Shown: in pieces, positions 9,107 through 31,624 of the stretch | Layout of the letters: each line of letters starts with the position of its first letter | Position numbering within the stretch: the first letter of the stretch is position 1 | IMG/VR virus record: IMGVR_UViG_3300045994_000081 | Coordinates: 1-54,024 of that record | Strand: one strand, 5' to 3' | From: a virus | Taxonomy: Duplodnaviria; Caudoviricetes | DNA: 54,024 nucleotides | Program-made: the position numbers and the translations under genes | Notes under the pieces: model-generated | What the model was told of the DNA's origin: nothing | What the model saw: only the letters and a program-made list of their open reading frames with translations | Database searches by the model: none

Positions 9107-10033
9107 TTAAAATAGCTCCTGAACAATAGATTTGAATTTTGTGTAATCGTTCTGCTCGTTCATCATCTCGCCAAGACGACCGTAAGCCCATAGATTATAC
9201 ACCGCACGGGATTCGTAAACTGTAGACAGACGTTCGTAGTTGAAACCGTTGTCTTCCAGCATTTTCATGACGTAAGCTTTTTCTATATCTGTCAGCGTGC
9301 TCAAGTGCTGTCCCGCGTCGTGTCTGCTAGGACTTTTATCTGACACGGAAATCGGGCCGTGATCAGGTGTGATAATACCGCCGAACGCAGCGGTCTGAAT
9401 CCATGAGCTAGAGTCCACACTCCACCACGGATATTTTTCCATAATTGGAACCGCTGTAATACCGAACGCATGAACTTTAAGCCTAGGTCTGCCACTTCCG
9501 TCAACAAGATATTTATCCCACATTCTATCCAACCATGTGGACAATTGCGCACTGGACCTGCCTACCATCCCGCCCAAAGTAATGTAATCGTAATTGGCAA
9601 CGTACCATTCAAGATATCTTTCGTCTTCGCCCACATGGAAGCAAGGAAGCGGTTTCGCGCCAAGGTATTCCATGTGAAGCTGGTTCCGGTAAGTTTGCAG
9701 CGGGTCACCAATACCGTCCAAAACAGACGCCATCACAACCCCGTCTTCAACGCGCCAGATATCCAGGTTACGCTTTATATATTCACAATAAGTGGGTAAG
9801 TCAATTGTGACTCCTAGCGTATGCGCGGAGAACGCGCCTGAGTCTAGAAAGACCTTCGCGCCGTTTTCCCTCATATTGTCAACGTACCGTTGCGCGCCAA
9901 TATAGTGATAAGACTCGAGGATATTCGGGATGTTATTATTCACAATTTCGCACTCGCGCTCGTTGAGCTTAAGATAGCGATTTTGGTTCTTCATATAGTT
10001 ATTTGTATAGACTGCGGCGGTGTATAGGTTCAC
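9107..10033 (-). CDS. dpdA: TGT-like 7-deazaguanine DNA transglycosylase (DpdA family)
   Basis: TGT-type motifs FLDSGAFS, PCFH.GE, LGG, HAFG, SVDSSSW; adjacent to preQ0 synthesis genes. Confidence 0.8.
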   Translation of the reverse strand: MNLYTAAVYTNNYMKNQNRYLKLNERECEIVNNNIPNILESYHYIGAQRYVDNMRENGAKVFLDSGAFSAHTLGVTIDLPTYCEYIKRNLDIWRVEDGVVMASVLDGIGDPLQTYRNQLHMEYLGAKPLPCFHVGEDERYLEWYVANYDYITLGGMVGRSSAQLSTWLDRMWDKYLVDGSGRPRLKVHAFGITAVPIMEKYPWWSVDSSSWIQTAAFGGIITPDHGPISVSDKSPSRHDAGQHLSTLTDIEKAYVMKMLEDNGFNYERLSTVYESRAVYNLWAYGRLGEMMNEQNDYTKFKSIVQELF

Positions 10034-10054
10034 AAGTTGCTCCTTTCATACGTT

Positions 10055-10083
10055 AGTATAACACCGCAATGAATAGACGATAA
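10055..10083 (-). promoter_or_regulatory. Possible promoter for dpdA-clamp-pol
   Basis: TTATCG-N17-TATACT with TG upstream of the -10. Confidence 0.45.
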
Positions 10084-10112
10084 CGGACGTATTTAAGTTC
10101 ATACGTCCGTTA
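10081..10112. terminator. Stem-loop between folE and dpdA
   Basis: 12-bp inverted repeat TAACGGACGTAT / ATACGTCCGTTA. Confidence 0.6.
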
Positions 10113-10118
10113 GATAGT

Positions 10119-11051
10119 TTACTTAGACAGACTTAAGAATTCAGACCGAGCTTGCGCGTCATCTTTAATCGCACCGCGAAGACTTGTGGTCACAGTGTGA
10201 TGGCCTTGTTGACAAACTCCTCGCGATTCCATGCACAGGTGACGAGCTTTTATAATTACGCCAACACCGATGGGATTCAGGTGTTCTACCAGCGCGTCTG
10301 CAATCTGGTCGGTCAGTCTTTCCTGCACTTGCAATCGGCGCGCGAACATGTCAGCAAGTCGAGACAGCTTGCTGAGTCCCACAATTTTCCCGTTCGGTAT
10401 GTAGGCGATAGACACGGTTCCAATAATAGGCGCGATGTGGTGTTCGCAATGGCTATAGATTGGGATGTCTTTTACCAGTACCATCTGATCATAATTTTCA
10501 GCACCGTCTTCGAATACCTTCAACAGCGTTTTCGCGTCTTTACCGTACCCGCTGAACCAGTGCTTCCAGGCTTTAACCACACGAGCAGGCGTCTCAGCTA
10601 GACCTTCCCGCTCTGGATTTTCACCTATGAACTGCATCATACGGACAACCGCGTCCGTCGCGCTTTCGTCTTCACCCTTGCTGGTGACTTCCCATGGAAA
10701 CACAATCCAGACGTTCTTGTAGACTTCGCTCGTAGTCTTATCAATAAGCGCAAAGAAAGGAATGCCAGGGTATTCATCGCAATACTTGCGCATGGTAGAA
10801 CCGCTGTCGATCAGGTCGTCTACAAAGATATCCGCGTCGAGAGGGTCTTCCGCCATCTTGCACTGGATCGCATAACGACTCAACGCATTACCCAGCAGAT
10901 AAGCGACCGGAATTCCGCCACGAGGTACGGCGTAAATCTTTATGATTGTCGTACCGCTTCCCGCACGGGTAGACAGTACATATTCTGAAATAGTTGATGC
11001 AAGACTTGCCGCAAGGGATACGACTTCTTTGTGGGTCAATTTCGTTTTCAT
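10119..11051 (-). CDS. folE: Fusion of type I phosphoribosyltransferase domain and GTP cyclohydrolase I
   Basis: N-term AVPRGG, IFVDDLIDSGST (PRPP loop), WIVFPWE; C-term ETPARV, SHCEHH, GLSKL, RRLQVQERLT, HLCMESRG. Confidence 0.92.
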   Translation of the reverse strand: MKTKLTHKEVVSLAASLASTISEYVLSTRAGSGTTIIKIYAVPRGGIPVAYLLGNALSRYAIQCKMAEDPLDADIFVDDLIDSGSTMRKYCDEYPGIPFFALIDKTTSEVYKNVWIVFPWEVTSKGEDESATDAVVRMMQFIGENPEREGLAETPARVVKAWKHWFSGYGKDAKTLLKVFEDGAENYDQMVLVKDIPIYSHCEHHIAPIIGTVSIAYIPNGKIVGLSKLSRLADMFARRLQVQERLTDQIADALVEHLNPIGVGVIIKARHLCMESRGVCQQGHHTVTTSLRGAIKDDAQARSEFLSLSK

Positions 11052-11060
11052 TCGGTTTCC

Positions 11061-11555
11061 TTAAAAAGTATAAGACGCGCTGCATTTTGCAGTCTCGTCA
11101 ATTGTAACGCTTTCAAGCATGACGCCTGTTCCCGCCAACTGTTGCGGACCAATTACGTTCACAAGATACTGCGCCATATTTTCCGCAGTCGGGTTGAACG
11201 GCAGCCATACAATAGAATCGTTCGTATAGTCTTCCGGTCCAATGTCTTTCCGAACAGAAAACTCACGCGCCATGCAATCTGAAATCCGATCCATAACGTC
11301 ATCATCTTCCCATGCCAGGAACTTGTGATCCCAGTTGTCTTCTAACCACATACACAGGCGTTCCTTAACAACGCCAAAGTCAATAACGCGACCAACACTG
11401 TCAAGCTGTTTCCACTGGTCGTCAATACAGTCCGCAACGCAAGTGAAATGGATTCGATAGTTGTGGCCGTGTAAGTGTCTGCATTTATTTTCGTGACCTA
11501 CAACGCGGTGTCCTGCGCTTATGTCATGGTATCGTTCTACGCGGTGAGTTCCCAT
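11061..11555 (-). CDS. queD: 6-carboxy-5,6,7,8-tetrahydropterin synthase
   Basis: AGHR, CRHLHGHNY, DFG, WDH, NPTAEN, ET motifs. Confidence 0.93.
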   Translation of the reverse strand: MGTHRVERYHDISAGHRVVGHENKCRHLHGHNYRIHFTCVADCIDDQWKQLDSVGRVIDFGVVKERLCMWLEDNWDHKFLAWEDDDVMDRISDCMAREFSVRKDIGPEDYTNDSIVWLPFNPTAENMAQYLVNVIGPQQLAGTGVMLESVTIDETAKCSASYTF

Positions 11556-12271
11556 TACTTACTCCAATCTTTCAGCTGTTCAAGTACAGGATTAAACATT
11601 CGTGGCCATAGTTCAGGATACATAGAGAAGCCCGCGTTTACAAAACCTTCCGCCTGACTTTTAAGATACTGCTCTTTGGTAGGCAGAATTACAAAATCGG
11701 TTATCAGTCCCGCTTGTTTTGCCCAAGGTCCGACAACAGAAGCGACCTTATAATTTCGCATATTGTGTCTGAAATTAAAAAGGACGTATTTGTAAGGGTG
11801 CGCGGTAAGAAACTCTTTCATTCGTCTTATGCCTACTTGAATATAAAGATCGTCGTGTTTCTTTTCACCGTGCGCGTCATAGTTAAGATACGGGAATTGC
11901 CCTTCTGCTTCTATTGGGATAAGACCGCCATTTGAATGAATTACAAGGTCCGCGTATTTTTCAAAATGCTCAAGATATACTTTCCACTTTCTGCTGAGGC
12001 TATAAGGTCTTGTCGCGGTGCAAAGGCTGAACAGTACCACGTTATGCCCTTTGGTATGGCCCTGAATAACGGATTGAAACGCTCGCTCCATTACCTCGGA
12101 ATTCAGAACGTCAGGGTCGTGTCCTTGGATGCCAGAAAGCGGACCCCAGTCTGCTTCAGGCACAAGCAAAGACCCGCCCTGCAAAATAGTCTTATCCGCA
12201 CGACCTTTCGTACCTTGCCATTCTACTTTTCTCGTCTTGCCTCTGTAAGGGAATTCTCTGAACTGTTTCAT
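11555..12271 (-). CDS. arcS: Archaeosine synthase (ArcS) core-like protein (DUF5591-like)
   Basis: LCTATRPYSLS matches the ArcS PC...KPYS.S motif; GLIPIEAEGQFPYLNYD matches G.vP.E.E..yP...YD; sits between queC and queD. Confidence 0.7.
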   Translation of the reverse strand: MKQFREFPYRGKTRKVEWQGTKGRADKTILQGGSLLVPEADWGPLSGIQGHDPDVLNSEVMERAFQSVIQGHTKGHNVVLFSLCTATRPYSLSRKWKVYLEHFEKYADLVIHSNGGLIPIEAEGQFPYLNYDAHGEKKHDDLYIQVGIRRMKEFLTAHPYKYVLFNFRHNMRNYKVASVVGPWAKQAGLITDFVILPTKEQYLKSQAEGFVNAGFSMYPELWPRMFNPVLEQLKDWSK

Positions 12272-12287
12272 TTGAAGTTATCTCTTT

Positions 12288-13043
12288 CTAGATAGAATTG
12301 TAATTATCGGTAGAAGGCAACGCCATCAGTCCTTCGTTCACGGCACGCACTACAAGCGGATCAGGTAAACCTGCTTGTTCAAAGCCATCCGCACGAAGTA
12401 CGTTGGCATGATTCATATCCGTAGGCGGGTACTTTCCGTCATAGCTTGTATGCGTATAAGCAAGCGCGTCCCAGCATTGCCAGTCTTTATGCGCAAGTCT
12501 TACCGTAGACGCTTTGTCCAGATACATTAAAGGCGTCCAGATGTAAATATAGCCTTTTTCGTTGCGGTTGTAGCCCAACGCTTCGTTAATGTACTTTTCA
12601 GCAGCGTTTATAAACGTATCTCGACAGTCAGAATAATTTGCGTTATCCATCTGACAGACGCCCGTCACCAATGTGGTCATTCCCAAAGCCTCAGCGCGGT
12701 TTGCGGCAATGGTAAGAAACAGCGCGTTTCGCATTGGGACAAAAGTCAGTTCGCGTCGATTGCCAATTAGCGTGTCCATCTGAACCGCGTTCTCATACTG
12801 CTCAAGCGCGTTTTCGCTGGTAAGCGGTGACATCGATATTAAGCAATTGGGAACCTTGATAACTTCGTGGGTCACGCCTGCAAGCTCCGCAACCTTGGCA
12901 GCAGCTTTGATTTCAATAGCGTGTCGCTGCCCGTAATCAAAGGTAATTGCATGAACATTTAAGGCGCCAAAGCGTGCGCAAGCAAGGAAAAGACAGGTTG
13001 TAGAATCCTGTCCGCCTGAAAGTATTACAAGAGCTTTTTCCAT
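12288..13043 (-). CDS. queC: 7-cyano-7-deazaguanine (preQ0) synthase
   Basis: LSGGQDST PP-loop, FDYGQRH..E, TFVPMRN, YSDCR, TPLM. Confidence 0.92.
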   Translation of the reverse strand: MEKALVILSGGQDSTTCLFLACARFGALNVHAITFDYGQRHAIEIKAAAKVAELAGVTHEVIKVPNCLISMSPLTSENALEQYENAVQMDTLIGNRRELTFVPMRNALFLTIAANRAEALGMTTLVTGVCQMDNANYSDCRDTFINAAEKYINEALGYNRNEKGYIYIWTPLMYLDKASTVRLAHKDWQCWDALAYTHTSYDGKYPPTDMNHANVLRADGFEQAGLPDPLVVRAVNEGLMALPSTDNYNSI

Positions 13044-13765
13044 TATTCAACTCCTAATAGTTTGTGGATTTGCAATTGCAGCGTGTACCCGTGCGTCATA
13101 CACGAGTCAACAACCGCTTGCAGGTTTAGCGCGTTAAGTTGCGCGTCTTTATAGTCCGCGGGCTGCAAGTATATAGGACCAAAGAAATCCTCAGGGGGTC
13201 TTGCAACGCCACCCTCGGAGCAAGGGTGTTCAAGTACATATTCGGGAAGACCGTCGTCCGCAACGTCACCCGCGCTTAGGACGTACTTATACGCGGATAT
13301 CAAAGGTGCAAGCTGACCATTAATCTTTCCAGTCTTAGGACTGCACACTACGAATAGGGCATCCGAGCGGGAGAAGTCTAAGCTCGCCCATTCGTAAAAG
13401 GACAGGGCAGGGGGTGGAAATGTGCCGTTCGTTTCGATCTGTACGGTGTAATCGTTTGCAAGAAGCAACTTACAAAGCTCGGTTATATTCTGGCGGAACG
13501 GTTCACCGCCAGTTATGACCACAAGGCACGCAGCATTCCGCAGCATCCGCACACCTTGCAGAATATCAATTGGTGTCGCGTTATAGCGGTTCACAGTGTA
13601 TTCAGTATCGCATTCAGGACATTGTAGGTTGCACCCTGCAAGACGTACAAATACAGCGGGACGACCTGCAAAAGGACCTTCGCCCTGAATGGTATAAAAG
13701 ATGGAATGTACGCTAAGGACGCCAAACTCATTGTTGACGTGTTTTTCAGGAAGTTGGTTGTTCAT
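13043..13765 (-). CDS. queE: 7-carboxy-7-deazaguanine synthase (radical SAM)
   Basis: IFYTIQGEG, GCNLQCPECDT (CxxxCxxC), TGGEP, IETNG, SPK, LQIHK. Confidence 0.93.
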   Translation of the reverse strand: MNNQLPEKHVNNEFGVLSVHSIFYTIQGEGPFAGRPAVFVRLAGCNLQCPECDTEYTVNRYNATPIDILQGVRMLRNAACLVVITGGEPFRQNITELCKLLLANDYTVQIETNGTFPPPALSFYEWASLDFSRSDALFVVCSPKTGKINGQLAPLISAYKYVLSAGDVADDGLPEYVLEHPCSEGGVARPPEDFFGPIYLQPADYKDAQLNALNLQAVVDSCMTHGYTLQLQIHKLLGVE

Positions 13766-24855: not shown

Positions 24856-27165
24856 CTATATAGGCAAGTGTATCACTCTAAACGCCCGACCGTGATATCC
24901 GTAAGACTCGACAAGCTTCTCACGTCCTACTTCCTGAATGTACCCGTTATCTACCAGCGACTTCAACGCGGTATCCATTGCATAGGTTGCACCGTTATGA
25001 TGCGAGGAGAACGAGTGAACGCGCTGGGTTCGGTTCTGCAATACCGAGCGTGGAACAATACCCGCGTTCTTCATTGCTTCAGGAATGTTATAGCTCGGTA
25101 TATTAGCCCCGCGTATAAAGTCAGCAATTACGGATATCAGTTTACGTTCACGCGGTGCGTCACCATTACCAACGTCACCCCCTGCAATGCGTCTAGACAT
25201 AACTGCAATATCACGTCTTATCAAATCCATCGCCCATCCGACGTGCGTTCTATCCATTACAGGGAATGAAGGGTTATCACATACCGCCAACAGTGCTGCA
25301 ATCCGCAAGAGCTTTAAATGGGCACGGTTCCACATCTGTCTCCAGCCCTCGTCCGTTGTACTGTTAATCTGACGGTCACATTCCTTGTCGAAGTCATACA
25401 GCAGTTTCGCAGCTTCACCATCACGCTCAACTTTTGTAAATATAGGTTGACCCGCTTGTGTCACCAACTGCGCCAGCAGGTTCTTTAAGTCATTGTGCAG
25501 CGGGGGCGCTTCGTCCGTTCGTAGCTCAGGTCTGTCCCCGTTGTATTCGACAATAGTAAAGCGGGAAAGAAATCCATCGTCCATCATGCTTTCGGTTAAA
25601 GACTCATAAAACGTGTTCGGGGTCGTTTCGCCTATCATGCTATATGCAACCCCATTGACCGAAGCGACGTTCTTTTCCTTATCGCTATATCCCATACCGC
25701 CCACAATACTCTCAGCACCAGACTTCTGATAAAGGTTCGTCATAACCGTGCGTAACTGTTGCATCGGACCTTCCCGACCGTCCTCCATTGCCAAGCGTTT
25801 AAGCTTACGTCCGAACTCACCGCTGATATTGCAGAAGCACTGGTTTTCAGAAACACCCTTTACAAGTGCAGGACCTGACGCGAAGTCTGCGTAAGACACG
25901 TGACGCATAATACTCGGAACCGACATCATCATTTCACCCACTACTTTGGAAATGTTGCTGTGCATAGCTTCCTTACCTACAGCAGACCGCGCAACCAATA
26001 CAATATAGAGGTTCAACCCGCTCTGAGGTAACTGGTACGAGCGCCCACAGATACCCGCTATAAGTCCCAGCGCAGCAACGATTGATATTTCCTTAACAGG
26101 ACGAGGTGAAGTCTGGAACATGTGGTAAGCAAGTATCCCCAGCCAGCCCGGAGGCCAATCTATACCCGCTTCAACTTCAGGCGGTGGCGCAGAATGCAGA
26201 CCACACGAGACAGGCTCGCCCACAGTCGCCCCGTCACCCGCGCTTGATACTTGCATACCAGCAAGCAACGCAGCAGCGCACGCCGCCCCATGCGTCTGCA
26301 CAAGTTCCTCACGTCCCTGTCTACCCCGTACGATTTTTAATGTCCGTTTTAAGTAAACGTCGTTCTTAATAGCCTTCTCACGTTTACCAAGACCAGTCAT
26401 GCGGAATAACCTCATACACTGTTCATTATTAGGACTGTGAAAACAAAACATAGACATAAGCGCCAAGTCTGCTTCCGACTGGGACGGATAACCCATTGCG
26501 CTCCAATCACCCTTGCACAAGTCGTTAAACTTTTCACCGTTTATTGCGCTGAGTAACTTTTCAACAATTTCACCGTCGTCGTACTTAGCGTCATGCTCTT
26601 CAAGCTCAAGCTTTGAATCCGTGCTTTCCATTTCCTTAGCAAGAACATCCAACCACTTCTGACCGTCTACTATAGGTGAAGCAATTACCGCGTCACCCGT
26701 GCAGACCATGAAACGCGCTTGCGAATACAGCTCAACCCCGTCACGTCTTAACCCAGCACCAATGCCGCCCAACACAATTACATGCAACCCCTTACCGCTG
26801 CTCGACCGCTCAGTATAAGAGTTGAACGTCTGCGCAATCTGCCAATAACGGTTTAAAGCTTCCGCGCTAGACCACTTTGCAGGGTCTGAACAGTTGTCCT
26901 GATCCTTAACGTCCATGTCTATAAAGGTGAACGGGTCGTCCGCTGCAATGACATATCCAACCCCGTACCCGCCTCCCAAGTGTTTAGCAGTTTCCAGAGC
27001 AGTCTCAAAGTCTGTCCAGTCATTCGGTTCAGTAACACTAGCCATCCGCGTCATGTCCGCAACGTAAGGAGCCTTATACGTCCCCTTCGGGTCTAACCCT
27101 GCAACGCACCACTGAGCCCTTGCCCTAACTTCTTCCGGTAAATTTAAGAGACGTGAATACTTCAT
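24856..27165 (-). CDS. Primase-polymerase/helicase (NrS-1-like AEP N-terminus, DUF3987-like C-terminus)
   Basis: FIDMD, YTERSSSGKGLH, ELYSQARF, SQSEADLAL; ARSAVGKE, SGPAL, GFLSRF. Confidence 0.85.
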   Translation of the reverse strand: MKYSRLLNLPEEVRARAQWCVAGLDPKGTYKAPYVADMTRMASVTEPNDWTDFETALETAKHLGGGYGVGYVIAADDPFTFIDMDVKDQDNCSDPAKWSSAEALNRYWQIAQTFNSYTERSSSGKGLHVIVLGGIGAGLRRDGVELYSQARFMVCTGDAVIASPIVDGQKWLDVLAKEMESTDSKLELEEHDAKYDDGEIVEKLLSAINGEKFNDLCKGDWSAMGYPSQSEADLALMSMFCFHSPNNEQCMRLFRMTGLGKREKAIKNDVYLKRTLKIVRGRQGREELVQTHGAACAAALLAGMQVSSAGDGATVGEPVSCGLHSAPPPEVEAGIDWPPGWLGILAYHMFQTSPRPVKEISIVAALGLIAGICGRSYQLPQSGLNLYIVLVARSAVGKEAMHSNISKVVGEMMMSVPSIMRHVSYADFASGPALVKGVSENQCFCNISGEFGRKLKRLAMEDGREGPMQQLRTVMTNLYQKSGAESIVGGMGYSDKEKNVASVNGVAYSMIGETTPNTFYESLTESMMDDGFLSRFTIVEYNGDRPELRTDEAPPLHNDLKNLLAQLVTQAGQPIFTKVERDGEAAKLLYDFDKECDRQINSTTDEGWRQMWNRAHLKLLRIAALLAVCDNPSFPVMDRTHVGWAMDLIRRDIAVMSRRIAGGDVGNGDAPRERKLISVIADFIRGANIPSYNIPEAMKNAGIVPRSVLQNRTQRVHSFSSHHNGATYAMDTALKSLVDNGYIQEVGREKLVESYGYHGRAFRVIHLPI

Positions 27166-27374
27166 GCTTCATCCCGTTTCTTTTTCCATGCTGCGATATA
27201 AGGTGCAACCTCTTCACGCTCCCACATAGTAAGGTGACCCCCGTCTATATAAATAGGGTAGGGCAGCCACCCGCGTGTTCTACCGTAAGTAAGCGCCGCG
27301 CGGGTGATACCGAGGGCAGCTTGCAACTGAGTGGAGGTGATATATTTTTCTTCAAATCGTTTCTGCGCCGACAT
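27162..27374 (-). CDS. Small HTH DNA-binding protein (AlpA/Xis-like)
   Basis: YITSTQLQAALGITRAAL....RGWLPYP....WEREEV. Confidence 0.75.
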   Translation of the reverse strand: MSAQKRFEEKYITSTQLQAALGITRAALTYGRTRGWLPYPIYIDGGHLTMWEREEVAPYIAAWKKKRDEA

Positions 27375-27440
27375 AAGAACTCCGGTTATTTGCTAAAGGA
27401 AAATACTATATATTGATCTGCTTTACGACTGCAATATAAT

Positions 27441-27986
27441 CTACTTTTGAGTTATTTTCAACGCCGCGTGTCTGGCGTGCAATTCCGCAATTTCAGTATC
27501 GCAAGCAAGTATCAATTCTTTCTTTTTTCGTATTGCAGCTTTCCACAACGTGTGAGCCTCAAGCACAGCGATTTCGTGTGCAACCTGTGCGTCGGACTTT
27601 GCTGCTTTACTGACCACATTAACAGGTTGCGCTTGTGCAGTTTCCAAATGACGAAACTCGCTTATATAAAGGTAACGAACCCGCTCCAAACTACTTATCC
27701 AGTGTCCGGTTTCTTTGCTGCGACGTCCGAAGTGCTGTTTTAAGAAGTTAACTGCCTCAGGACGCACTGTTTCAAGAAACGTAGCAACCTCGGAAGACGA
27801 ATTAAGTGCAGCTGATATTTCAGGTCTGAACACCCTGCGATCTGTATTAGGCAAGGGCCAGCCGTCCTCACCCAGCAGATCATTTGGCAGTTTTTTATCG
27901 TCCGTTTCTGCTTGTGGGACGTTTTGAGTTAGCGGATTTTCACCTGTTATTGGTGCAGGAGTACCGCTGAAGAACGATGTGAGCAT
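27441..27986 (-). CDS. Hypothetical protein adjacent to the putative origin
   Basis: 181 aa, AGAGG SD, C-terminal coiled coil. Confidence 0.65.
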   Translation of the reverse strand: MLTSFFSGTPAPITGENPLTQNVPQAETDDKKLPNDLLGEDGWPLPNTDRRVFRPEISAALNSSSEVATFLETVRPEAVNFLKQHFGRRSKETGHWISSLERVRYLYISEFRHLETAQAQPVNVVSKAAKSDAQVAHEIAVLEAHTLWKAAIRKKKELILACDTEIAELHARHAALKITQK

Positions 27987-27994
27987 AGTGACCT

Positions 27995-28314
27995 CTTTAG
28001 TTAATTAGCTTTAGCACTTTAGCAGCTTTAGCATAGAATTTTTTGAGTTCTGTAAAAGATATTTATTTTTTGTAAAAAGTTGCTTAAATAGTAAGCACTA
28101 AAGCTGCTAAAGCTTGCTAAAGGCTAAAGCAGAAAACGTGCTTTAGTAACTTTAGCGATATTTTGCTTATACACCCTGCAACCCATGTATATTTTTAATA
28201 TATATAAAGCCAAAAAACAGGGGGGGGGTGATTACTAAAGCTAATAAAATATTGTTATAAGTACTTAATTAATAAAGCTTTTTTTTGTATTATATAACAT
28301 TAGTAACTCTTTAG
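27995..28314. repeat. Iteron-like CTTTAG/CTAAAG array in AT-rich DNA; putative replication origin
   Basis: 12 copies: forward 27995, 28009, 28017, 28026, 28141, 28150, 28309; reverse 28098, 28107, 28117, 28124, 28235. Confidence 0.7.
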
Positions 28315-28384
28315 CATTATAGCAGGTCTATTTTTATTGGTGAAATATACGAACTCTCTCAAACCCTTATACTATATGGGGGCC

Positions 28385-28416
28385 TCATAGGGTGCCGCCC
28401 GGGCGGCTTCATAGGG
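28385..28416. repeat. GC palindrome flanked by direct repeats
   Basis: GCCGCCCGGGCGGC (28394-28407) between two TCATAGGG copies (28385, 28409). Confidence 0.6.
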
Positions 28417-28525
28417 GCGGCGCGCCTTAGCAGGGGTTTTTCAGCGTTTATTTAGTCAAGTCTTAAAAGTACCGCGCAAGCGCAGCAACCTGGCACCGTT
28501 CCAATGTGGTTATTAAACTCATCAA

Positions 28526-28565
28526 GTGTACTTCTAAGCGCGAACGGGGTAATATACGTTTCATG
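28526..28565 (+). promoter_or_regulatory. Putative rightward early promoter
   Basis: -10 TAATAT (28550-55) followed by N5-TCATG as in other promoters; weak -35. Confidence 0.45.
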
Positions 28566-28845
28566 CACAGCACACAACAAACACGCAGCCTTTGTCTATA
28601 GCGGATTGCTGAAACTATAGACGCGGTCTTTTAATTGCTCTACGAACTGAGCAAGGATAAAGAACAAAAGGACATCCCAGCGCATAGGGGACATGACTAG
28701 ATAATTATTGCGCCTTAACCGTTGCACATGTAATCGAACAGAACTGCACATTGTAAGGAAGGACGCTTCCTGTATTTTGTAGAATAAGGGGTCTGTATAA
28801 GACGTCCGCTGGACGACCCCTTGCTCTGCACCCCTTAACTCAACA
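28561..28845 (+). ncRNA. Candidate structured ncRNA or long 5' leader
   Basis: No ORF in the track; hairpins at 28594-28622, 28635-28654, 28675-28691, 28756-28771, 28786-28822. Confidence 0.35.
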
Positions 28846-28855
28846 GGAGTAAAAT

Positions 28856-29704
28856 ATGAGCACAGAACAAGCGCCTGGTCAGCGTAAACACAACCACTAT
28901 TTTAAGCCCTGCCCTTACGACGAAATTGACGTATATCGCTTGCTTGAATTGTTTCAAGTAACGGATCAATCTATCGGACACGCGGTGAAGAAACTGCTCG
29001 TTGCTGGTGGTCGCGGTGCAGGTAAGAACATTGACAAAGACATTGCGGAAGCGATTGACACTTTGCAGCGTTGGCAGGAAATGAGACGCGAAGATTTGAG
29101 CGTGTTGATTTACGCAGAACCCGCACCCGCCAAACCTTCGCCACCTGCACCAGCTTTCAAATTATACAATGACGGTCAGATACGCGAAGTGAAGACTGAA
29201 GGCGATTCCGCAATAGGTATATGCGAGGGGCGCCAGGTTTTTATCAATTCCGTATTATTCCACAAAGAAACAGGTCGTCCGCTTTTGGCTTTTCCGATTG
29301 CGAATGTCGATATGTTTTTTACGGAATATACATGGACGAAACGCGTTGCAATTCCTGAACCTTCACATGTGGTCAATAACCCAGCTCCTAGGACAGGATG
29401 GGCAAAGTGGACTATTCCAGCGGAAGAGCTTCAAATCGAATCCGTGCCGAATCATCCGTCAGCTTTTGGCACGTCCTCAAAAGCTTTTATCAAAGCGTCG
29501 CATATTCCGACCGGAATTTCTTATACATGCACAGACGGACGCAGTCAACACGCTAACCGCGCAAAAGCAATTGAACAGTTGACGTTTCATGTTGCAGATT
29601 ATCTTAAAGCGCTTGACCGCATTAAGTTCCTTAGCGACATGTCGGAACAGGACAAACGTGACGCAATTGATAAACTGAAAGAACACTACGGGGTGATAAA
29701 TTGA
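28856..29704 (+). CDS. Multi-domain protein: conserved phage N-terminal domain plus C-terminal peptide-release-factor-like domain lacking GGQ
   Basis: N-term IDVYRLLELF.VTD....HAVKKLLVAGGRG; C-term EELQIES...HIPTGISYTCTDGRSQHANRAKA. Confidence 0.75.
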   Translation: MSTEQAPGQRKHNHYFKPCPYDEIDVYRLLELFQVTDQSIGHAVKKLLVAGGRGAGKNIDKDIAEAIDTLQRWQEMRREDLSVLIYAEPAPAKPSPPAPAFKLYNDGQIREVKTEGDSAIGICEGRQVFINSVLFHKETGRPLLAFPIANVDMFFTEYTWTKRVAIPEPSHVVNNPAPRTGWAKWTIPAEELQIESVPNHPSAFGTSSKAFIKASHIPTGISYTCTDGRSQHANRAKAIEQLTFHVADYLKALDRIKFLSDMSEQDKRDAIDKLKEHYGVIN

Positions 29705-30156
29705 TACTGTTGAAACTTCATTTTAACTGGGACACGAGTGCGCAGATTAAGGCACTGAGTCCTGAACGATACGCGGAGTTTGTTGCACAGTTTCCTGACA
29801 TCGGGTTGAAGCCCGAATACCCGAAGGAAGGTGAATACGTTTACTGTTCTGACATCTTTGCAACGATGGAAGAACTGGAGGCAATTACCGCTTACGGGGT
29901 GGAGCCAAACGTCAAGAAAGTTAAAGGCTTGCATTACCAGAATGGAATACCTGCACCCGCGTCCCCTGCGAACAACATTACAATCACGAACGTGCATGTG
30001 CCTAATGCAGCACTGTTCGAAGTAACGAAAGTTAACTGGCTGGAAGATACCTGTACGGAAAACCTTCAACGTCAGCTTGATGCTGGGTGGCGGATACTTG
30101 CGGTCTGCCCTAGCAACGATGCAAGACGTCCTGACTATATACTGGGGATGAAATGA
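29701..30156 (+). CDS. Hypothetical protein
   Basis: 151 aa; LEDTCTENLQ..LDAGWRILAVCP...RRPDYILG. Confidence 0.65.
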   Translation: MILLKLHFNWDTSAQIKALSPERYAEFVAQFPDIGLKPEYPKEGEYVYCSDIFATMEELEAITAYGVEPNVKKVKGLHYQNGIPAPASPANNITITNVHVPNAALFEVTKVNWLEDTCTENLQRQLDAGWRILAVCPSNDARRPDYILGMK

Positions 30157-30368
30157 AAGACTGTGATAGCTGTAAATGGAGTGACGACCACGGATGTGAC
30201 GCTTGCAGCACTTGCAAGATTGAAGCTAACGGGGACGGGACAAACTGGGAAGCGGGTGAAGGTATAGAAGTCGACGCTGAAGGCATTTGCCCCGCGTGTT
30301 CTGGAAGCGGTGAGGGTATGCACGAAGGAACCACTTGCCGCGCTTGCAAAGGAAAGGGCGAATTGTGA
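30153..30368 (+). CDS. Cys-rich protein with DnaJ-type CxxCxGxG zinc finger
   Basis: CPACSGSG, CRACKGKG. Confidence 0.7.
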   Translation: MKDCDSCKWSDDHGCDACSTCKIEANGDGTNWEAGEGIEVDAEGICPACSGSGEGMHEGTTCRACKGKGEL

Positions 30369-30682
30369 AAACGGCACTGAGTGACTTCCGCGGATTACTG
30401 GTAAACGAGTTTGCAGAATTCCTGAACGAAACTATGGACGACGCAGGTCTGTTGTGTACCTGCATGAACTGTCACCATTTTGATGAACCGTCAGAGTGTT
30501 GTGCGTTTGCTGGTTCACGTCCGCCAGCTCGCGTCATTGCGTTCGGGTGTCCTGCATTTAAGGAACGAGAGCAGGTGATAACGGTCAGCGGTACGACAAA
30601 TCCTGTTCAAGACGAGCCCGCTCCTGTCAAGCTTGTACCTGCATTAAGGTTGATGAACTACGATGACGATATACCGTTCTAA
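30365..30682 (+). CDS. Cys-rich protein ending in DDDIPF
   Basis: GTG 30365; CMNCHHF..C...RPPARVIAFGC; C-terminus NYDDDIPF. Confidence 0.7.
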   Translation: MKTALSDFRGLLVNEFAEFLNETMDDAGLLCTCMNCHHFDEPSECCAFAGSRPPARVIAFGCPAFKEREQVITVSGTTNPVQDEPAPVKLVPALRLMNYDDDIPF

Positions 30683-30712
30683 ATTTATTTTCCAAAATAG
30701 TTGATTAAATGC

Positions 30713-30740
30713 TTGCGTGATTTGTTCAGGTCGGTATAAT
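30713..30740 (+). promoter_or_regulatory. Sigma70-type promoter
   Basis: TTGCGT-N16-TATAAT followed by N5-TCATG. Confidence 0.65.
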
Positions 30741-30780
30741 ACGAGTCATGCATCACTTAACCCACTACTAGGAGAACAAC

Positions 30781-30939
30781 ATGAACTTCCATGATACCGT
30801 ACAGCGCGCCATAGAAATCTACAAAGCGCAAGTCAAAAAGAATCTTTGTTTTGCAGCATCTGACGCGAACGACGAAGCGGGCGGCGAGTGGAACGTCAGC
30901 GCAGTTCAAACCGCTGCCCACAAAATCATTTTTGCGTAA
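30781..30939 (+). CDS. Small early protein, 52 aa (not in ORF track)
   Basis: AGGAGAACAAC-ATG; MNFHDTVQRAIEIYKAQ...AAHKIIFA. Confidence 0.65.
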   Translation: MNFHDTVQRAIEIYKAQVKKNLCFAASDANDEAGGEWNVSAVQTAAHKIIFA

Positions 30940-30949
30940 GGAGCACAAC

Positions 30950-31624
30950 ATGTCAGACCTTTCAAACATCTTTGCGCGCATCCAGAAATGTATGCGCCTT
31001 GCTGGTAGCGATAACCCGCACGAAGCAGAAGCGGCTGAACGCCAAGCTCGTAAGCTGATGGATAAATACAGCCTGACTGAGGGCGACCTTGCTGCTCACG
31101 GGATTACGAACCAGACTGTTCACTGCCCTATTGCTACCCGCAACAAACTGCCCGTCACGCTTGCGACCTTAATCAACCTGATTGTGAAAGCGTTCGGGGT
31201 GAAAGCAGTTACCGAAGCAGAGATGCGGGAAACTCAACCATCATATGTGGTTAGGTACTTCGGACCAGCTGACCGCGTAGAACTTGCTGCCTATACGCAC
31301 GTCGTAATCTACCGCGCAATGGAAGCAGCGTGGAAAGTTTACTTGAAGGAGAATGCAGACCGAAAAGGTGAACGCGGTGCTCGTGCAGGGTTTCAACTCG
31401 GATTTCTGGAATCGATACGAAGTCAGATAGACGAACTGGCAATGACCGACACTGAACGCACAGGAATTGAACTGGTAAAAGACGCGCATTACGGGGTGGC
31501 TTTGTGCAAGGGTAAAGCCAACAACATGCAAGTGAGCGCCAGTGCCTGCAACAGCGGAAAGAATGCTGGCGCGGGGTTTAATTTACGCAGGCCAGTAGGC
31601 GCAGATCGCGTGCGTCTTAACTAA
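30950..31624 (+). CDS. DUF2786-domain protein
   Basis: RIQKCMRLAGSDNPHEAEAAERQARKLMDKY; start at ATG 30950 after AAGGAG. Confidence 0.8.
   Translation: MSDLSNIFARIQKCMRLAGSDNPHEAEAAERQARKLMDKYSLTEGDLAAHGITNQTVHCPIATRNKLPVTLATLINLIVKAFGVKAVTEAEMRETQPSYVVRYFGPADRVELAAYTHVVIYRAMEAAWKVYLKENADRKGERGARAGFQLGFLESIRSQIDELAMTDTERTGIELVKDAHYGVALCKGKANNMQVSASACNSGKNAGAGFNLRRPVGADRVRLN

Follow-up and report, generated by a model that had tools for sequence, protein, structure and literature searches.

Domain 3 is the part of class I release factors that reaches the peptidyl-transferase centre. A homologue of this domain with the GGQ motif replaced was found in a three-module protein of 282 amino acids (aa; P0001), which was identified from the list of open reading frames (ORFs) and its translation and is encoded at 28856..29704 (+, stop codon included) of a virus sequence from IMG/VR (54,024 bp, with an estimated completeness of 86%), i.e. 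the whole stretch of DNA that was analysed, hereafter the window. RF1 and RF2 (PF00472) share with the protein the fold and the scaffold motifs H-x-P-T-G and R-S-Q-H-x-N-R/K-x-x-A, whereas the 282-aa protein is without GGQ, has a loop two residues shorter, contains no PCRF/codon-recognition domain (PxT or SPF motif), and scores 29 against 35 bits on the family model. The phage proteins of phrog_20323, phrog_35727 and phrog_19918 were matched by profile and have likewise lost the glutamine in favour of a hydrophobic replacement; from these the 282-aa protein differs in that both glycines are lost as well, and in that its domain is joined to a DUF3310-like module and to a middle region of orphan sequence.

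Small GGQ-type domains outside canonical termination are also found in ArfB/ICT1/mtRF-R and PrfH, which the protein resembles in fold and sequence matches. According to excerpts of PMC12829566, these factors have GGQ plus a basic tail or an rRNA-recognition domain, whereas the 282-aa protein has neither. The NCBIfam ArfB model gave no match to it, and the PrfH model TIGR03072 reached 21.7 bits against a cut-off of 166.65, covering residues 211-249 only. In contrast to the basic C-terminal tail of ArfB/ICT1, which enters the mRNA channel, the C-terminal helical tail here (aa 258-282, 29627..29701, +; helix 264-278) is slightly acidic, with 4 K+R and 6 D+E.

A further comparison is provided by Balon, a GGQ-less aeRF1-like hibernation factor, which occupies the ribosomal A site without catalysis as described in the abstract of PMC10901736. 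Being a release-factor relative without GGQ, it is a precedent for a non-catalytic ribosome binder, but it has the archaeo-eukaryotic aeRF1/Pelota fold in place of the bacterial RF-1 domain, and it is cellular, not viral. As for the N-terminal module of the 282-aa protein, the DUF3310 proteins SaV and T7 gp1.7, the latter a nucleotide kinase, align with it in register and have the motifs HYFK and KxLxxAGxxxxK...D in common with it.

A release-factor domain 3 homologue and its phage family

Residues 186-257 of the 282-aa protein (29411..29626, +) represent a genuine homologue of class I release-factor domain 3. The likeness had been proposed in a sequence-only reading, by eye, for 29408-29600, which corresponds to residues 185-249 and encodes the quoted peptide as written (IPAEELQIES begins at I187), and sequence profiles, predicted fold and Foldseek all agreed with the proposal. 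Pfam RF-1 matched residues 209-249 on profile positions 33-72 of 116 with an E-value of 1.1e-6; the 29 bits obtained are below the curated cut-off of 35, and relatives reach 36.7-47.6 bits. When all PDB chains were searched with phmmer, RF1 came first (E=6.4e-5), followed by RF2 and PrfH. The NCBIfam models prfA (E=4.7e-7), prfB (E=1.4e-5) and prfH (E=1.2e-4) were matched far under their full-length cut-offs, those of prfA and prfB covering residues 211-250 only. A profile of 33 GGQ-less phage domains, non-redundant and built with the 282-aa protein left out, gave 66.4 bits (E=5.9e-23), whereas the best of 500 shuffles of the protein reached 4.8 bits.

The AlphaFold2 model, made from a 44-row alignment with no templates, had a per-residue confidence (pLDDT) of 93-96 across residues 188-257, with strands at 192-197, 211-216 and 221-225 and a helix of 27 residues at 231-257. 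In sequence order, the domain consists of a strand, the loop VPNHPSAFGTSSKA (aa 197-210), the strand IKASH, the turn IPTG, a further strand, and the RSQHANR helix, residues 211-242 reading FIKASHIPTGISYTCTDGRSQHANRAKAIEQL. Among the top Foldseek matches listed from the PDB, all were RF1, RF2, mtRF1/1a, mtRF-R or PrfH, and the 63-residue peptidyl-transferase-centre fragment of RF2 (6c4h_v) was superimposed over 63 columns with a TM-score of 0.76 by target and a root-mean-square deviation of 2.7 Å. The best Foldseek E-value was modest (1.9e-3) because the domain is small.

The 282-aa protein is not a one-off. RF-1 domains, alone or fused to other parts, make up a family that is widespread in phages and mostly without GGQ, and the protein is one of its members. 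Three PHROGs entries cover the domain, i.e. phrog_20323 (E=3.9e-7), phrog_35727 (E=3.6e-5) and phrog_19918 (E=5.3e-5). Searches with the C-terminal 197 residues, and then with a ten-domain GGQ-less profile, returned hundreds of proteins of 58-465 aa, in which Pfam detects only the RF-1 domain; members of 64-78 aa consist of the domain alone, and the Pfam RF-1 cut-off was passed by ten out of ten members tested (36.7-44.3 bits). After clustering at 70% identity and alignment to one model, 50 representatives were obtained, 34 without and 16 with GGQ, in proportions biased toward the GGQ-less type because the search profile had been built from GGQ-less sequences.

Thirteen of the 16 GGQ representatives form the ordinary release-factor clade (support 98/98). 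The remaining three (P0260, P0328 and P0315) are metagenome mini-proteins of 68-70 aa, made of domain 3 alone with the GGQ intact, and are nested among the phage-type domains, beside the SGQ form P0326. Their placement suggests that the family started as a free-standing GGQ domain. P0289, one of the 34 GGQ-less domains, falls among the true release factors and may itself be a release factor that was damaged. The free tree of the domains (66 columns) needs three changes, and forcing all GGQ-less domains into one clade cost 11.5 log-likelihood units, with a p-value of 0.309 in the approximately unbiased (AU) test on these 66 columns only, by which a single clade is neither demonstrated nor rejected.

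The cultured-phage members that were translated were GGQ-less in four cases out of four. ORF037 of Pseudomonas phage 73, located directly after the primase gene and annotated as "putative peptidyl-tRNA hydrolase", is GGQ-less, as are Skulduggery gp63 and Vibrio phage K412 0281, and proteins of Otagovirus and Vibrio phages annotated as "RF-1 domain" belong to the same family. Phage Iggy (MN029011) encodes at 28376-29446 (-) a 356-aa "peptide chain release factor 1" with a GGQ-less RF-1 domain at approximately residues 13-90, followed by a long C-terminal part (phrog_3956, phrog_30401). A scan of the genome collection with the protein P0127 gave two loci only, both in metagenome-assembled genomes of Thermoanaerobaculia (43% identity).

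The replaced catalytic loop and the conserved scaffold

In the alignments and by hmmalign, residues S202-A203-F204 stand at the G-G-Q positions, within a loop covering aa 197-210 (29444..29485, +), which agrees with the earlier observation that the GGQ loop is replaced. Translation of 29301-29700 in the three forward frames gave no GGQ. With 14 residues, the loop is shorter than in 13 of the 16 GGQ-bearing representatives, where it has 16; a 14-residue loop was found in 12 of the 34 GGQ-less ones, and a shortening by one or two residues is usual in this group. A203, the last loop position that the protein shares with both groups before F204, is glycine in 71% of the GGQ-less and in 100% of the GGQ representatives, and at the position after it phenylalanine is the commonest residue in the GGQ-less group (32%). 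In terms of the family signature of glycine followed by a hydrophobic residue, F204 fits, and the preceding glycine is alanine here.

Because both glycines are gone, the 282-aa protein is likely unable to hydrolyse peptidyl-tRNA in the manner of release factors. Since the catalytic motif has been lost, the annotations "release factor" and "peptidyl-tRNA hydrolase" are probably wrong for most members of the family, and especially for the 282-aa protein. That the domain should still be a hydrolase, or another enzyme acting on peptidyl- or aminoacyl-tRNA by a different loop chemistry, is hardly to be expected. In some relatives GG is retained and M or F comes after it, and the whole GGQ is retained in three mini members; substitutions of the Gln side chain spare much of the hydrolytic rate and glycine substitutions abolish it, which would make the GGM and GGF members plausible enzymes. 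In the 282-aa protein, however, the sequence is S-A-F with neither glycine, in a shortened loop. The best candidates for telling altered from abolished catalysis are the domains with a full-length GAGGM loop, i.e. those of the Otagovirus type and of the IMG/VR loci L101-L103, L106 and L107, where only the glutamine has been changed, to methionine.

Outside the loop, the ten core residues H216, P218, T219, G220, R229, S230, Q231, H232, N234 and A238 are all kept in the 282-aa protein. In the 34 GGQ-less representatives, conservation was 100% at H216, P218 and N234, 97% at G220 and A238, 91% at T219 and R229, 88% at S230 and H232, and 79% at Q231; the same residues are conserved in the GGQ group, and the motifs H-x-P-T-G and R-S-Q-H-x-N are retained family-wide. 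This conservation reads as purifying selection on the non-catalytic core of the family.

The glutamine position, after a glycine kept in 71% of the GGQ-less domains, reads F, M, W, L, I or H (loops with MGGF, TGGF, KGGM, PGGM, GSGF, GSGW or TSGL), and intermediate forms run from GGQH to SGQH and to SGLH. Judged from these alignments, the recurrent hydrophobic replacement looks selected rather than decayed. Passages of PMC5799190 describe van der Waals contacts of the methylated glutamine of release factors with U2506, A2451 and A2452. Plausibly, this pocket could also take up a hydrophobic side chain.

In the preferred, still tentative reading, which is possible though held well short of even confidence, the 282-aa protein would carry a module without hydrolytic activity, which binds the large subunit at its A site, next to the peptidyl-transferase centre, and thereby disturbs release, rescue or the binding of acceptor ends. 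The catalytically stripped domain 3 would still dock at the domain-3 site, on the A-site side of 50S next to the peptidyl-transferase centre, with F204 at the site from which U2506, A2451 and residue 2452 are contacted by the methylated glutamine. On some ribosomes the docked module would then compete with RF1/RF2, rescue factors or acceptor ends, and translation would be altered in infection; the DUF3310-like N-terminal module and the orphan middle region might supply targeting or a second activity. The sequence-only reading had also suggested A-site occupancy, promotion of readthrough, a block of ribosome rescue or decoy functions, all of them hypothetical. The ribosome-facing scaffold that is conserved, together with the hydrophobic residue found repeatedly at the catalytic glutamine, suggests that an activity other than the canonical one has been selected for, in or close to the peptidyl-transferase centre.

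Several observations weigh against such docking. The characterised GGQ-domain factors covered in excerpts of PMC12829566 are all anchored via a second element, i.e. a domain for the recognition of the codon or of rRNA, or a tail that lies in the mRNA channel. In the 282-aa protein no PCRF domain was found, RF-1 being the sole Pfam match at E-values up to 10, and the C-terminal tail is acidic, so no basic anchor is detectable. The net charge of the domain is -1, compared to a mean of +0.9 in the family and +2.25 in GGQ domains. The protein is among the more divergent members, with a branch length of 1.45 where the median is 0.49; it reads IKASH in place of VRITH, and F is found instead of the glycine that precedes this strand in 82% of the family, a divergence that fits relaxed constraint as well as changed function. 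Moreover, the fusion is uncommon, since an RF-like domain was present within 5 kb of the N-terminal module in none of 90 IMG/VR loci. In 17 further loci, 11 of which have an RF-like ORF, no ORF of the N-terminal module was found.

The divergence is also one of the grounds for an alternative in which the RF-like segment is in decay, hardly or not functional by itself, and is passed on as a cassette of a mosaic gene. The long branch is accompanied by the departures G203A, G211F, R213K and T215S from the family consensus, no full-length relative occurs in IMG/VR or in the 1.84 billion representatives searched, and RSQH has been wholly lost in some fusions of the N-terminal module (P0071, P0075). 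Such decay is nevertheless considered improbable, as the reading frame is unbroken and preceded by a good ribosome-binding site, nine of the ten most conserved family positions are retained, the match to the family profile is 66.4 bits, and the predicted fold is confident.

Lack of a detected ribosome-anchoring element also suits an alternative in which the release-factor fold is re-used off the ribosome, as an RNA- or protein-binding adaptor that inherited the scaffold. An analogue is the plant plastid PrfB3, which has lost the catalytic motifs and stabilises an mRNA. In mosaic phage proteins the domain is found as one of many cassettes, between flanks that are unrelated, and the fusions with the N-terminal module evolve fast (branch lengths over 2 in P0071, P0074 and P0031). 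The residues kept are, however, exactly those invariant in ribosome-bound release factors, which a new partner would be expected to reshape, and an adaptor of this kind is rated as unlikely.

Besides the ribosome, the glutamine methyltransferase PrmC is the only known partner of domain 3, and the protein might inhibit PrmC, or another factor recognising domain 3, or might act as its decoy, with the hydrophobic residue placed in the glutamine pocket. The solved RF-PrmC complex 2b3t was among the fold matches, and at the glutamine site the family has retained a glycine with a hydrophobic residue after it. Co-folding of Escherichia coli PrmC with residues 183-282 gave a score of 0.77, but an unrelated control gave 0.62, and likeness to the solved RF1-PrmC complex could raise the score, which therefore speaks neither for nor against binding. 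Both loop-shaping glycines have been lost from the 282-aa protein, and host release factors would already be methylated at the start of infection, leaving the benefit within one lytic cycle unclear. A role against PrmC is accordingly regarded as very unlikely.

Returning to docking on the ribosome, a bolder and family-wide version of it can be formulated, in which phages carry "anti-release" mini-factors, i.e. free-standing domains 3 where Phe, Met, Trp or Leu has repeatedly taken the place of the glutamine. Such factors would act as plugs of the A-site cleft without hydrolysis, in the manner of an aminoacyl side chain or an antibiotic binding the peptidyl-transferase centre, and would block release or rescue factors or defence toxins on selected ribosomes; in the 282-aa protein the plug would be tethered to a module of the SaV/gp1.7 type. 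This extension is speculative and thought improbable. If ribosome binding were true, the family would offer compact and diverse natural probes or inhibitors of termination and rescue, and would represent a new phage route to the manipulation of host translation.

With regard to novelty, the phage domain is already catalogued and automatically annotated, and GGQ-less relatives of release factors are known elsewhere, so that this is not a new kind of protein. In the literature searched, with subscription journals and supplements outside the scope, no account was found of phage RF-1 domains having systematically lost the glutamine, of its hydrophobic replacement, or of the DUF3310-like fusion. 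The pattern at the level of the family is more interesting than the single divergent member.

The N-terminal module and the middle region

The RF-like domain is fused to an N-terminal helical module at aa 1-85 (28856..29110, +), delimited from phrog_2452, homologues, AlphaFold2, ESM Atlas and hhalign, and characterised by the motif KHxHYFK...DVYRVL...HAxKKLLVAGGRGAGKD...EAIDTLxRWQEM. That this is a conserved phage domain, as the sequence-only reading held, was borne out by the match of residues 4-80 to phrog_2452 (E=4.3e-26). In total 165 homologues were found at E<=0.001, with 60-79% identity across the module alone. The module is promiscuous, being found at either terminus of phage proteins that differ in length, and in IMG/VR it is frequently found alone, as a protein of 75-100 aa. 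It was modelled with a pLDDT of about 90 as helices at 26-32, 38-52 and 59-85.

Several features of the module hint at a relationship with DUF3310. In the ESM Atlas, its features lie near DUF3310 clusters (0.93-0.94), with TM-scores of 0.58-0.86 in structure. With an alignment of 18 N-module proteins, hhalign placed the module on residues 16-73 of SK1 ORF26 (E=0.022) and 123-179 of T7 gp1.7 (E=0.038), both inside the stretches called DUF3310 by Pfam (7-64 and 122-184, respectively). SK1 ORF26, which we take to be SaV, carries the Pfam domain with an E-value of 1.1e-8. The Pfam DUF3310 model (PF11753), in contrast, gave no match to the 282-aa protein at E-values up to 10, nor to any of 44 aligned proteins, about 29 of them carriers of the module, at E-values up to 1, and the hhalign E-values only reach 0.022 and 0.038. 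The evidence is weak, and the module is probably a divergent DUF3310 of the SaV/T7 gp1.7 type; because the Pfam model does not match, it is here called DUF3310-like, not DUF3310.

Fusion partners of the module include a PNKP-type HAD phosphatase, a PRA-PH/MazG-type pyrophosphohydrolase (in P0086) and a PaaA2 antitoxin motif, encountered among P0003, P0017, P0078 and P0086, and the recurring theme of the partners is nucleotide or nucleic-acid-end chemistry. In BFVD, the module was also matched in proteins named phosphodiesterase and DNA ligase. Clear combinations with the RF-like domain were seen in 7 of 120 listed proteins, this one included, with four more weak cases; five of the seven had been in the profile used for the count. 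The recurrent fusion provides a handle on a second large function-orphan family that includes SaV and T7 gp1.7. For the C-terminus of the Iggy protein, a stretch around LAEEFGEL resembled the PRA-PH/MazG region of P0086 (BLASTP E=0.077) with no Pfam match; a three-way fusion link between the N-terminal module, the RF-like domain and MazG-like domains could be present, and is unproven.

The probable DUF3310 relationship brings in phage defence. According to excerpts of PMC8306868, SaV is an early and toxic protein of lactococcal phages, and its mutation lets the phages escape AbiV, which acts on protein synthesis, likely via rRNA degradation, as listed in a table of PMC13064643. Cytotoxic mycobacteriophage proteins are among the DUF3310 proteins mentioned in an extract of PMC10700055. 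The 282-aa protein could act at the interface with phage defence, with the DUF3310-like module sensed by AbiV-type systems and the RF-like module either shielding or rescuing ribosomes from defence nucleases or serving as bait. The DUF3310 call in SK1 ORF26, the fusion partners of phosphatase, pyrophosphohydrolase and antitoxin type, and the action of AbiV on protein synthesis would suit such a role, and so would PrfH, a release-factor paralogue that rescues ribotoxin-damaged ribosomes in the account excerpted from PMC12829566. The assignment to DUF3310 is, however, weak, with the two hhalign E-values given above and 0 of 29 module carriers matched by Pfam, no defence system or host is known for the phage of the window, and ribosome rescue would need the catalysis that the 282-aa protein is without. 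A defence interface is on balance distinctly improbable.

Between the two modules lies the middle region at aa 86-185 (29111..29410, +), delimited by phmmer and AlphaFold2, which consists of a proline-rich linker followed by a beta-rich stretch. The pLDDT was below 50 at 86-108 and 147-180, with strands at 111-147. A phmmer search of the 1.84 billion representatives with aa 86-282 gave 17 matches, and 15 of the 16 that were not the query itself covered the RF-like part only. The exception, P0122 (407 aa), was aligned to query residues 7-67 (aa 92-152) in five stretches with 26% identity (E=7.6e-6), probably a low-complexity or proline-rich match. For the middle region, the ESM Atlas returned no usable match.

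Gene order and the host phage

The gene heads the rightward block of the window, opposite to the replication block, and its proposed status as an early gene, from the sequence-only reading, is presumptive. It is preceded by AGGAG 8-12 nucleotides (nt) 5′ of its ATG and has a GC percentage of 46.6, compared to 48.4 for the window, in which neither the RF-like profile nor the N-domain profile has a further match. The gene is followed by small ORFs, a DenV-like glycosylase, RusA, terminase subunits and structural genes, when the leftward block includes genes for a DNA polymerase, a clamp-like processivity factor, DpdA-like transglycosylase, FolE, QueC, a helicase, a Cas4-type exonuclease, ligase, ThyX and primase.

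Gene content and order match those of the Pseudomonas phages PaMx25, assigned in its record to the subfamily Queuovirinae, and Iggy, with which the gene order agrees. The primase has 48-49% identity to those of the Pseudomonas phages PaMx25 and NP1. The syntenic PaMx25 gene (gp63) showed no similarity to the 282-aa protein. Full-length relatives were found neither in IMG/VR, where five loci were obtained, all matching the N-terminal module only, nor by phmmer among the 1.84 billion representatives. No RNA datasets were listed as containing the stretch, and one DNA run, which may be the source sample, contains it.

An inverted repeat (GGGGTC...GACCCC) is located at 28789-28821, about 35 nt upstream of the gene start, in the 870-bp gap that separates the divergent gene blocks. 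The repeat might form a hairpin with a regulatory role or be part of a phage promoter. In a consensus scan of 27000-31000 for promoters and terminators, site counts were equal to those of shuffled sequence.

Shortly downstream of the gene, two small cysteine-rich ORFs with several CxxC pairs are located at 30153-30368 and 30335-30682 (+), encoding 71 and 115 aa, respectively. The second one matches phrog_23504, and the corresponding block of PaMx25 encodes a "Znf domain-containing protein". In the leftward block, a 7-deazaguanine DNA-modification cluster was recognised at 9107-13765 (-), including the DpdA-like transglycosylase (9107-10033, -), a FolE fusion (10119-11051, -) and the QueC-like gene (12288-13043, -), and its order matches that of phage Iggy, i.e. 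DpdA, FolE, QueD, QueC, QueE.

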